Positions 16,221 to 19,079 of a stretch of 64,000 nucleotides of DNA are shown piece by piece (the first letter of the stretch is position 1; each line of letters begins with the position of its first letter). Made by a program: the position numbers and the translations under genes. Source of the DNA: Minisyncoccota bacterium (lineage in GTDB: Bacteria; Patescibacteriota; Minisyncoccia; Phycocordibacterales; CAJQIN01); assembly GCA_905478465.1 (NCBI GenBank), contig CAJQIN010000012.1, positions 32,890 to 96,889 on the forward strand, given 5' to 3'. The notes under the pieces were generated by a model. That model saw only the letters and a list, made by a program, of their open reading frames with translations. It had not been told where the DNA came from and did not search any database.

Positions 16221-19079
16221 TCAGACTTTTGTGTCTGTTGCAAAGCTGACTAACCTGTCAGGAATAAATTTCTTTAATTCGTATGATGCACTGATCCAAC
16301 GAAAAATTTCTTCTGTTTCTTTAATTTTTTGTACCACATCACCCTCAGTACTACCAACTGGAACCCGAATGGTCCCCCTCATTTTTCCATCAACCTGAAC
16401 TGCAATTGTTGTCTCAGCATCCATGATCTTCTCATGATCATACTTAGGCCAACTCTGCACATGAATAGATTCTGATCCTGCTACTACTTTCGACCACAAT
16501 TCTTCAGCAAGATAAGGAGCGAAAGGTGCCAGAATTTTTAAAGTCATCTGATACTGTTCTTTTGTTAAAGACTTAGTCTTCTCAACATGATTTAAGAATA
16601 TCATCATGGCAGAAATAGCAGTGTTAAATTTGAACTCAGACATATCACTGGTTACTTTTTTTAACATTTTGTGCAACTCTTTTTCCACACGCTCAGAAAC
16701 ACCCTCTTTTTCTATATAAGCTTCAAGTCCACACAGACGCTCTAAAAATCTTCGTATACCAGCAATACCCCCCATATCCCAGGGATACGATCCTGCCTCT
16801 CCGTACGGTCCAATAAAAGCCAAATACATACGCACAACATCTGCTCCCACCTTTTCTACCATTGCATCTGGATCCACGACGTTACCCTTAGACTTACTCA
16901 TTTTTTGTCCATCAGGACCCATAATAAGACCTCTATTGATACGCTTTCTGAAAGGTTCCATTTCTGCAACAGCACCAATATCAAAAAGTACTTTTTGTAA
17001 GAAACGAGAATAAAGCAAATGAAGTGTGGTATGTTCTGATCCTCCAAAATATTGCCCAACAGGCATCCATGCTTTCTGTGCTTCTAGCGAGGAAATAGAT
17101 TCCTTATTATGTACATCAATATACCTAAGAAAATACCAAGATGAATCAATAAAAGTATCCATCGTTTCAACTTCCGGAGTCCATCCTTTTCCAAAAATAT
17201 CTTCTGTATTCTTCTTTAACATCTCAGACTTATCCAAGGGCGCCTTGCCTGTCGGCGTAAAGTCAACATCTTCTGGTAGAATCCATGGTAAATGTTCCTC
17301 CGGAACAGCATGTGGTTTTCCATCAGGATCGAAAACAATAGGAATTGGAGTACCCCAATATCTCTGACGTCCTATGGACCAATCCCTAAGCTTAAATGTA
17401 GTCTTCAAATTTCCATTAACCTTTTCCGTTATACTCTTTTGAACCTCTGTTGAGAGACTACCGTCAAATTCTCCAGAGTTTATAAGTATCCCTTCTCCTG
17501 TATACGCGTGTCTTTCTACACTAAAAAACTCTTGAATATGCGGAAGTTCAGAGACAGGATTAAAATCCCTAAAATTATCAATAGGTACCCAGACAACATC
17601 ATGTAGACCCTTCTCTTCCTGGGTAATTTCATCTTTTTCTAGATCTCTTAGTTCAATATAAAATACTTGAGAAAAAGCTTTTCGATTAACATCCTTATGA
17701 GCCACATAAAAACGTGATTCCATTTGCCACCCAATTCTCTCTATTTTTCCAACATTTTTATACCCAGTCTCTTCTTGTACTTCACGCAAAACAGCATCTT
17801 CATAACTCTCTCCCTCTTCAACACCACCAATAACAAAAGTTTTCCAAGGCTGTTGCTTCCATTGAATTTGAATTATTCTGTCTTCCGTTGGGTGCTTAAC
17901 AATGACTTGAACATTACGTCTCGGAGAAATATCCTTACCTTCCAAAGGAGGATTATCTTTATCTACAAAAATTGGTGCAATAACTTGCACAACAGGGAGG
18001 TTGAACTTTTCTGCAAACTCAAAATCACGCTGATCATGTGCTGGTACAGCCATTACCGCGCCTGTACCATATCCTCCAAGAACATAATCGGATACAAACA
18101 CAGGAATCTCCATATTATTTGCTGGATTAATAGCGGTAATCCCTTCAAGTAATACGCCAGTTTTTTCTTTTTGATTAGCTTGACGCTCGAGTTCACTTTT
18201 TTTGATAGATTTTTGAACATATTTCCGAACCTCTTCTTTATTCTTTATTCTTGATTTATTTTCACTAAGCGCTGAATCAATAAGCTCATGCTCTGGAGCC
18301 ACCACAAGATACGTCACTCCAAAAAGAGTATCTGCTCGCGTCGTAAATACAGATATATTTTCTATAGTATCTTCTGTTATAAAATTAATAAGAGAACCCT
18401 CCGATCTTCCAATCCAATTTCTCTGCTGTTCTTTTATTTGTTCTGGCCAATCAAGATCATCAAGGTCATTTAATAACCTTTCCGCATAATCTGTAATTTT
18501 TAACATCCACTGTTTCTGTTTTCTTTTTTCTATCTCCGTACCACATCGTTCACATTTTCCATCTACCACCTGTTCATTAGCTAAAACAGTTTTACACGAC
18601 GAACACCAGTTTACTGTCGTCTCCGCTTTATACGCCAAACCTTTCTCAAACATTTTAGTAAAAATCCACTGGGTCCATTTGTAATACTTAGGATCAGATG
18701 TGCGAAGTTCTCTAGACCAATCAAACATAGTTCCCATTGATTGAAGTTGCATCTTCATGTAATCAATATTGCCATATGTCCATTTTTTTGGATCAAGTCC
18801 GTGTTTTATGGCTGCATTTTCCGCAGGAAGCCCGAAAGAATCGAAACCGATAGGATACAAAACATTCTTCCCCTGCATACGCATAAAGCGTGCATATATA
18901 TCTGGAATAGCAAAAGCATACCAATGTCCAATATGGAGATTTCCTGATGGATACGGAAATTCAACTAGTGTGTAGAAATTTTCTGCACCTTCTTTTTTTT
19001 GCGGTGTTTCGTAAAGCTTATCCTCTATCCACTTATTTTTCCATTTTTTCTCTATTTCTTTATGGTCGTATTCTTTCAT
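16221..19079 (-). CDS. leuS: Leucyl-tRNA synthetase carrying an inserted Nudix hydrolase domain of about 150 aa
   Basis: Class I motifs HIGH (NLHIGHWY) and KMSKS. ZN-1 (CSSCKTV ... CERCG), TRADTLFG and [23 protein letters not shown] are all present. Between that segment and [11 protein letters not shown] sits a Nudix fold with a canonical Nudix box ([23 protein letters not shown]). I placed the start at [17 protein letters not shown]. The ORF track extends it to 19127. Confidence 0.88.
   Translation of the reverse strand: [952 protein letters not shown]

Follow-up and report, generated by a model that had tools for sequence, protein, structure and literature searches.

On the minus strand of a 64,000-nt stretch of DNA from a Minisyncoccota bacterium (contig CAJQIN010000012.1; hereafter the window, to which all coordinates refer) lies leuS, the gene for leucyl-tRNA synthetase (LeuRS), with a Nudix hydrolase domain inside the CP1 editing domain of its product. 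An earlier note on this stretch had pointed to a Nudix hydrolase domain of canonical type inserted in LeuRS. Scores of hidden Markov models (HMMs), a predicted structure, a fold search and comparison with homologues all bear this out, placing the insertion after the AHDxRD motif in an organism of the Candidate Phyla Radiation (CPR) type. The following features are relevant here (M17 numbering counts residues from the preferred start of LeuRS):

16221..19079, minus strand: leuS coding sequence, 952 aa from M17 plus the stop codon
18924..18935, minus strand: HIGH, signature of the class I catalytic core
17970..18422, minus strand: N-terminal three quarters of the CP1 editing domain (PF13603, 205 bits)
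18327-18344, minus strand: T-rich motif TTRADT, within the CP1 editing domain
18024-18068, minus strand: stretch of the CP1 GTG...AHDxRD editing motif, within the same domain
17508..17978, minus strand: inserted Nudix domain (M17 aa 368-524), standing in for a 12-residue CP1 surface loop (Thermus thermophilus residues 363-374)
17910..17927, minus strand: SPRRNV with the family-invariant Arg (insert R20), aligning with YRRNVG of lupin Ap4A hydrolase (1f3y)
17760..17828, minus strand: Nudix box, the metal-binding and catalytic motif (M17 aa 418-440)
17682..17711, minus strand: subfamily signature [FY][YF]A-x-H-K-x2-N-R, 17-26 residues past the Nudix box, with its K..R aligning with AvrM14
17388..17507, minus strand: closing part of CP1, C-terminal to the insert, aligned to T. 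thermophilus LeuRS from residue 375 onward
17352-17387, minus strand: return segment from CP1 to the catalytic core (motif coordinates)
16890..16904, minus strand: KMSKS signature
62504..62932, minus strand: stand-alone Nudix gene, 142 aa, outside the LeuRS-associated subfamily described below

The mechanically delimited open reading frame (ORF) of leuS spans 16221..19127 on the minus strand and comprises 968 aa, with a TTG codon as start. The exact sequence of the 952-aa product that begins at M17 (window position 19079) is found in public collections, and for this reason we take M17 as the likely true start. The ORF scores 927.6 bits against the TIGR00396 leuS_bact model (cutoff 548.4), has Pfam matches to the class I core, the editing domain PF13603, the anticodon-binding domain and NUDIX PF00293, and aligns with the LeuRS structures of T. 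thermophilus and Escherichia coli with E-values of 1e-205 to 1e-181. On sequence grounds, the gene demonstrably encodes a complete bacterial-type LeuRS, in which the synthetic (HIGH, KMSKS) and editing (T-rich, GTG...AHDxRD) motifs are intact. Indeed, H49, G51 and H52 of the HIGH signature, as well as the CP1 residues T246, T247, R248, T251, G338, H348, D349, R351 and D352, are invariant in an alignment of 103 LeuRS sequences. The previous claim that all other LeuRS elements are intact stands for HIGH, ZN-1 (its four cysteines are present), the editing motif and KMSKS, but not for the leucine-specific domain, since alignment to T. thermophilus LeuRS reveals no counterpart of residues 580-636 of the latter in the window protein (16890-16940). 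Found before KMSKS in LeuRS of T. thermophilus and E. coli, this domain is not universal, and the 102 aligned Nudix-bearing relatives, with the consensus RGLILGPDGxKMSKS, likewise do without it.

The insert is clearly delimited by a phmmer alignment with T. thermophilus LeuRS, in which ORF aa 17-383 correspond to residues 1-362 and ORF aa 540-737 to residues 375-579, so that ~156 residues (ORF aa 384-539/540) take the place of the 12-residue loop. The stretch 17520-17950, to which the Nudix domain had been assigned earlier, falls within 17508-17978, but the accompanying estimate of about 165 residues is slightly high. NUDIX PF00293 matches ORF aa 404-519 well above threshold (53.5 bits, E 3.2e-14; cutoff 21.1), and the Nudix box deserves its earlier description as textbook, for it agrees with GX5EX7REUXEEXGU at every specified position and supplies the metal-site glutamates E433, E436 and E437. 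Because PF13603 is matched ahead of the Nudix domain only at profile positions 1-143 of 185, the latter sits inside the CP1 editing domain, and the arrangement is shown to be a nested insertion, with Nudix within CP1 and CP1 within the Rossmann fold. The insert has the alpha/beta/alpha Nudix fold, and AlphaFold2 returned a confident model of the whole protein (predicted local distance difference test, pLDDT, 91; predicted template modelling score, pTM, 0.82). CP1 of this LeuRS is thus shown, as modelled, to host a Nudix domain that is well folded and whose catalytic box is perfect, apparently a complete and active hydrolase domain. A recent horizontal insertion, an intein or a mobile element can be rejected as its source, given that the GC content of the insert resembles that of the host gene and that the insert is present in all relatives down to 47% identity.

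The same insertion occurs in the closest relatives of the window LeuRS: PF00293 is present in all 120 best homologues (47-71% identity; Patescibacteria/CPR), the named ones carrying the source labels Pacebacteria, Kaiserbacteria, Paceibacterota or Patescibacteria group. Within the 103-sequence alignment, G418, G419, E433 and E437 of the Nudix domain do not vary. NCBI gives the Nudix-bearing LeuRS no more specific name than 'class I tRNA ligase family protein' or 'hypothetical protein', which means that an essential enzyme is systematically under-annotated there; at JGI, several are called 'leucyl-tRNA synthetase'.

An exhaustive HMMER search with the insert against 1.84 billion representative proteins returned 397 matches at E<=1e-3, and LeuRS accounts for 104 of the 149 top representatives. 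So few representatives in so large a superfamily indicate a small, distinct Nudix subfamily, which we defined by R20, the Nudix box, [FY][YF]AxHKxxNR, E122 and W130 (insert numbering), together with at least 100 bits on an HMM built from the family. All but one of the 271 gathered proteins match this HMM (scores 102-265 bits, median 181; the window insert, being the seed, matches by construction), as opposed to four unrelated Nudix proteins, the window's stand-alone Nudix among them, which reach at most 25 bits or give no match. Across 286 domain copies, the REUxEE glutamates are retained in 284 (E16), 276 (E19) and 285 (E20) and the glycine that opens the box (G1) in 282. Outside the box, R20, K95, N98, R99, E122 and W130 are near-invariant (R20 in 273, K in 282, N in 278 and R in 262 of the copies), and aromatic residues follow it at box+17 (F/Y in 274/286) and box+18 (Y/F in 259/286). 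In one subclade, the Gx5E glutamate and the box Arg are replaced jointly (E to Q with R to A, Q or M). The domain is acidic in every context, with a median isoelectric point of 5.4 and a net charge of about -7. Retention of the REUxEE glutamates in 96-99% of copies whose sequences are only 25-70% identical speaks for an enzyme and not for a pseudo-enzyme, and the conservation is the pattern of a predicted enzyme under purifying selection. Taken together, these comparisons show that the domain is, as far as sequence can tell, a member of a small and distinct Nudix subfamily with evolutionary ties to aminoacyl-tRNA synthetases (aaRS). The separate Nudix gene at 62504-62932, which had also been predicted, is real (PF00293, 65.4 bits); it aligns with the insert in the Nudix box only and scores 20 bits on the subfamily HMM, compared with at least 102 for members, and its recent duplication into leuS was rejected on these grounds.

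Related LeuRS vary in how many Nudix domains they carry and where. At least two insertion sites exist, one after AHDxRD, as in the window, and the other before the T-rich motif, and some proteins carry tandem copies or have the domain at either site; the number of copies reaches three (P0122, P0123). LeuRS with multiple Nudix domains are 1050-1300 aa long and carry two or three diverged copies (P0122-P0130, P0018, P0026, P0072, P0077, P0088, P0093 and P0104 are those listed). Copies within one LeuRS are 19-46% identical and share 50-66% identity with copies of other proteins or of the other site, which implies that they are old paralogues acquired repeatedly; recent tandem duplication was accordingly discarded as their origin. 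Ser_hydrolase-type alpha/beta-hydrolase, ASCH or DUF559/MTES_1575 endonuclease-like domains are also inserted around CP1 in some related LeuRS. CP1 is a domain-insertion hotspot in this clade. Some members show W at the glycine positions of the box. In one locus (L018), which carries a stand-alone member (P0151, 3228-3761) and a LeuRS likewise with a Nudix insert (2-2080), the corresponding codons are TGA, and translation table 25 yields a perfect box. TGA at these invariant glycine positions indicates that the family reaches lineages in which UGA encodes glycine and that such members are mistranslated (W) in protein databases.

Members of the subfamily also exist as stand-alone proteins of 160-190 aa, and of nine whose gene context we looked up, five are linked to leuS. 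One (P0131) lies 2 bp upstream of the gene for a 951-aa LeuRS that has an internal Nudix domain too, and the genes downstream of this locus (Sigma70_r4/HARE-HTH, DUF8128, YceG) match the synteny of the window. Another (P0148) is located 3 bp upstream of a LeuRS gene whose PF13603 domain is uninterrupted (profile 1-185) and whose product has no Nudix. A third (P0157) is 11 bp upstream of a leuS start, P0177 belongs to a co-directional metS...leuS cluster, and P0151 is found 1.1 kb downstream of the LeuRS-Nudix gene mentioned above. The remaining four (P0141, P0185, P0213, P0222) are away from leuS. A domain that is fused to its partner in some genomes and encoded as a translationally coupled neighbour in others bears the classic signature of functional partnership. 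In the metS...leuS cluster (L015, 482-8549), the co-directional genes encode MetRS, an unknown protein, TatD, P0177, two small ORFs, an HD protein (YfbR-like), another unknown protein, a 145-aa Nudix and an insert-free LeuRS. Two Nudix types are thus linked to leuS in this locus; the 145-aa protein directly upstream of leuS falls outside the subfamily and was excluded from the support.

LeuRS is not the only synthetase that carries this domain. In an archaeal-type class II prolyl-tRNA synthetase (ProRS; P0198), a Nudix domain of the subfamily (158 bits on the family HMM) is found between the anticodon-binding and C-terminal domains, and this architecture recurs in five clusters (P0198, P0281-P0284; 641-674 aa; locus L006, 2906-4837). 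The closest insert-free ProRS relatives are ~485 aa long, 70-80% identical over the shared parts and labelled Nanoarchaeota or Woesearchaeota (DPANN). The Nudix domain is inserted in ProRS of DPANN-like archaea, which points to an independent capture in another domain of life. LeuRS, ProRS and proteins derived from them are the only multidomain hosts identified among the 149 best representatives, in which longer non-LeuRS members were examined in part.

The derived proteins include seven clusters (273-388 aa) in which the C-terminal half of CP1, the Nudix domain and the closing CP1 strands form a free-standing protein (P0236, P0152, P0171, P0208, P0253, P0266 and P0234). One of them, P0236 (L005, 985-1869), is encoded by an independent gene beside a VanW-like gene, and its editing Asp and one Nudix-box Glu are substituted; the idea that it is a fragment of a broken leuS was rejected, as the gene before it is VanW-like and the intervening stretch has stop codons. 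Possibly analogous is P0174, which combines an anticodon-binding-like domain (a sub-threshold match) with Nudix.

Fusion, duplication, coupled neighbours and capture by ProRS together constitute a strong comparative-genomic signal of what would be an undescribed functional partnership. The architecture and its evolutionary history, taken on their own, we regard as practically certain.

What the domain does is far less clear-cut. We propose that the insert would act as a Mg2+-dependent pyrophosphohydrolase working alongside the synthetase, and that its substrate would most probably be a nucleotide polyphosphate that class I and class II synthetases alike form as a side product. Dinucleoside polyphosphates of the diadenosine tetraphosphate (Ap4A), diadenosine triphosphate (Ap3A) or Ap4N type would be the likeliest candidates; these would arise through attack of ATP or another nucleotide on an aminoacyl-adenylate, and their hydrolysis may return ATP and AMP at the production site, in very reduced genomes. 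As a single explanation covering architecture and substrate, this is the best that we can offer and comes close to, though it falls short of, an even chance; the choice of an Ap4A-type substrate, or of polyphosphate house-cleaning in general, stays appreciably below that mark.

Several observations are consistent with this proposal. Among the profile matches in the PDB, AvrM14 ranks first (E 1.7e-10), ahead of lupin Ap4A hydrolase (2.9e-8); CT771, Aquifex Ap4A hydrolase and DIPPs come next. The closest characterised folds are RppH (including its Ap4A complex, 7sp3), NudI, DIPP and the ApnA-ase Rv2985. The window sequence PRRNVQ aligns with YRRNVG of the lupin enzyme, the Arg of insert R20 alone being family-invariant, and K95 and R99 align with AvrM14. 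An aromatic residue (Tyr) 16-18 positions past the box reportedly marks ApnA hydrolases (Dunn et al. 1999), and the aromatic residues at box+17 and box+18 fit this rule, which we treat as a lead and not as proof. That the nearest characterised relatives are of the RppH/Ap4A type and that the domain is acidic favours hydrolysis of synthetase-derived (di)nucleoside polyphosphates, the acidity in particular arguing for a small-molecule substrate over RNA. Many aaRS make Ap4A from an aminoacyl-adenylate and ATP, ProRS among them and LeuRS more weakly, and because such dinucleotides are common to class I and class II synthetases, they would explain capture of the domain by both LeuRS and ProRS. On balance, the evidence mildly favours the Ap4A/polyphosphate option over the other functions that the earlier note had suggested, namely action on aminoacyl-adenylates or additional proofreading.

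Nevertheless, a number of points weigh against this proposal. Curated NCBIfam models of RppH, YtkD and NudC give only 23-25 bits on the insert, with cutoffs of 116-158; the RppH equivalog models (NF001934-NF001938; cutoffs of 116-241) in particular stay below cutoff (best 24.8 vs 116), and the domain is therefore not classed as RppH. The best fold match, 2azw, is uncharacterised and does not have the K..NR signature. LeuRS is a poor producer of Ap4A compared with LysRS and PheRS, which makes it an unexpected preferred host. There would be no need to build a free Ap4A hydrolase into the editing domain; the repeated insertion beside the T-rich and AHD motifs, together with the proteins that combine half of CP1 with Nudix, hints at closer coupling to the editing site or to the 3' end of the tRNA. 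In addition, the presence of more than one diverged copy in a protein points to several substrates and not to a single one.

These points lead to an alternative in which the hydrolase acts on a species held by CP1 or by the synthetic site, as a third quality-control or repair activity. Candidates would be a pyrophosphate or nucleotide adduct at the 3' CCA end of tRNA-Leu (e.g. a toxin-installed 3'-pyrophosphate or one of the ADP-ribose type), a non-cognate adenylate or an adenylate-mimic inhibitor. Both LeuRS insertion sites flank editing motifs (after AHDxRD and before TTRxDT), and LeuRS and ProRS are both error-prone and need editing, but the ProRS insert, between the anticodon-binding and C-terminal domains, is not at an editing site. 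The free-standing CP1-half proteins are real genes, with a weaker parallel in the anticodon-binding-like domain joined to Nudix, but the CP1-half copy of P0236 has lost its editing Asp and one Nudix Glu. Insertion of other hydrolase or RNA-binding domains (the Ser_hydrolase alpha/beta-hydrolase and ASCH) in the same region of related LeuRS and the presence of the RNA-end enzymes RppH and NudC among the closest folds would fit this alternative, whereas the acidity of the domain and its stand-alone forms away from synthetases indicate no obvious need of a tRNA-binding scaffold. Furthermore, mature tRNA 5' ends are monophosphates, and aminoacyl-adenylates are acyl-phosphate anhydrides rather than nucleoside diphosphates linked to another moiety (NDP-X), being handled by HIT enzymes and not by Nudix. 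All in all, we consider an activity linked to editing or to the tRNA end unlikely.

Just as unlikely is an uncoupled, generic Nudix enzyme, devoted to house-cleaning or salvage of unrelated NDP-X or (d)NTP substrates (ADP-ribose, oxidised or non-canonical NTPs, NAD(H) or CoA) and fused to a permissive LeuRS loop for guaranteed expression. CP1 loops are known to vary in length, and the insert replaces a surface loop of 12-17 residues; CPR and DPANN organisms have reduced genomes, in which fusions occur commonly. Stand-alone members are found in unrelated contexts as well, the member in L015 is encoded beside TatD and an HD 5'-nucleotidase-like gene, and the fold matches are spread over many Nudix specificities. 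However, independent insertion at no fewer than two LeuRS sites, up to three diverged paralogues in one LeuRS, tight operonic placement ahead of leuS and a separate capture by ProRS are hard to explain without functional coupling. The multidomain hosts identified among the best representatives, whose longer non-LeuRS members were examined in part, also are only LeuRS, ProRS and their derivatives.

A broader version of the quality-control idea, namely a dedicated aaRS quality-control or repair system of CPR and DPANN episymbionts that would act on synthetase-bound species rather than on a free metabolite, seems to us more doubtful still. Its targets might be non-cognate adenylates, antibiotics that mimic an adenylate, or tRNA 3' ends that are damaged or have been modified by a toxin, and, if it were true, LeuRS with its co-inserted alpha/beta-hydrolase and ASCH domains would be a multi-hydrolase platform. 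Finally, a non-catalytic sensor or structural module, which would bind a nucleotide (e.g. an alarmone or ADP-ribose) and tune LeuRS allosterically, or stabilize CP1, is brought to mind by the subclade with correlated replacements of the Gx5E Glu and the box Arg, by free-standing derivatives that are missing one catalytic Glu and by the Nudix-fold regulators NrtR and AraR among the fold matches, but is most improbable given the near-universal retention of the REUxEE glutamates, the window copy included.

As for the surroundings of leuS, all 28 ORFs of at least 300 aa in the window are on the minus strand, and the sole RNA gene found there is tRNA-Ala(TGC) (30399-30473, minus strand). Neighbouring genes encode YchF, a Sigma70_r4/HARE-HTH protein, YceG, MnmA, a short AlaRS, UvrA/B, G6PD and BipA. 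The AlaRS (6799-8556; 585 aa) consists of the class II core and tRNA_SAD, with no Pfam domain matched past tRNA_SAD. An exact direct repeat of 2,943 bp (19165-22107 and 44470-47412, 25 kb apart) comprises almost exactly one coding sequence; its copies are 100% identical, and their flanks are unrelated. The encoded protein of 977 aa carries a signal-like segment at its N-terminus and a hydrophobic stretch in its centre, and no Pfam model matches it. The GC content of the repeat is 0.418, compared with 0.364 for the window, and both copies coincide with the only regions of positive GC skew. Conceivable origins of the repeat are an artefact of the assembly, duplication in the very recent past and gene conversion. 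In the place of the copy that directly precedes leuS, a relative has DUF5671 and a stand-alone Nudix. Between the 977-aa gene and leuS (~19128-19165), a GC-rich inverted repeat is followed by a T-run (CCACCCTGGAGGGGTGG TTTTTT, minus strand), and a TACAAT-like -10 element precedes the M17 start; together, they suggest that leuS has its own promoter. Elsewhere in the window (60664-62079), a 471-aa protein combines an N-terminal signal-like segment with a long, highly acidic and internally repetitive region (DDAEDYLDEA... units).

Few enzymes have been studied as intensively as aminoacyl-tRNA synthetases. The bacterial ones rarely have accessory domains, and those that are known have usually proved important for editing, for binding tRNA or for resistance to antibiotics. 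In the present case, LeuRS has a second catalytic domain built in, which comes from an unrelated superfamily and is conserved over a large part of the Candidate Phyla Radiation. The nesting within CP1, the clade-wide spread, the dedicated subfamily, the adjacent genes, the multiple copies, the archaeal ProRS and the missing leucine-specific domain all go beyond the earlier note. Its impression that the architecture had not been described agrees with our literature search, in which we came across no account of a LeuRS or any other aaRS with a Nudix domain, although thin coverage of subscription journals means that this is not proof. The LeuRS-Nudix architecture is visible in precomputed Pfam annotations, yet apparently uncharacterised. 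It provides a handle on how minimal-genome symbionts respond to synthetase side products such as Ap4A or to attacks on their tRNAs and synthetases, on the annotation of essential enzymes that now have only generic names at NCBI, and on the structural load that CP1 tolerates, against the view that CP1 is never a host. That view stems from a 2026 survey of domain insertions, in which the PF13603 editing domain is 'insertion-exclusive', with zero host events (PMC13114784). The window LeuRS contradicts it, as the PF13603 domain here acts as host.

When set beside known systems, the window protein is closest to canonical bacterial LeuRS (T. thermophilus 1H3N/2BYT, E. coli 4AQ7), with which it shares motifs and domains and aligns over the full length outside the insert; the differences are the replacement of a 12-residue CP1 loop by a Nudix domain of ~156 aa and the loss of the leucine-specific domain. 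RppH/NudH (YgdP, IalA) and the Ap4A hydrolases (E. coli RppH 4S2X/7SP3; lupin 1F3Y) are 18-20% identical to the insert, which differs from them in being acidic, in bearing its own HK..NR/E122/W130 signature and in being embedded in or adjacent to a synthetase instead of serving as a free RNA-decay factor. The best fold match, 2AZW, a structural-genomics target of the MutT/Nudix type from Enterococcus faecalis, is a stand-alone Firmicute protein with 19% identity. Proteins of the AvrM14/DIPP type (8DP8; NUDT3) share with the insert the K-x3-R past the box, the conserved Glu and the Trp; however, they are eukaryotic effectors or inositol-pyrophosphate/cap hydrolases with no link to a synthetase, and only the C-terminal two thirds of the insert align with them.

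A precedent for joining a class I synthetase to a domain that modifies small molecules is IleRS with a GNAT domain (NCBIfam NF040702), and fusions of a HIGH NTase with Nudix, of the NadM type, are an instance of a HIGH-superfamily enzyme covalently joined to Nudix (PMC7824862). Both kinds of fusion are terminal and follow another logic (antibiotic self-resistance and NAD/ADP-ribose metabolism, respectively), whereas the Nudix domain of LeuRS is nested, occurs in multiple copies and belongs to a subfamily of its own.

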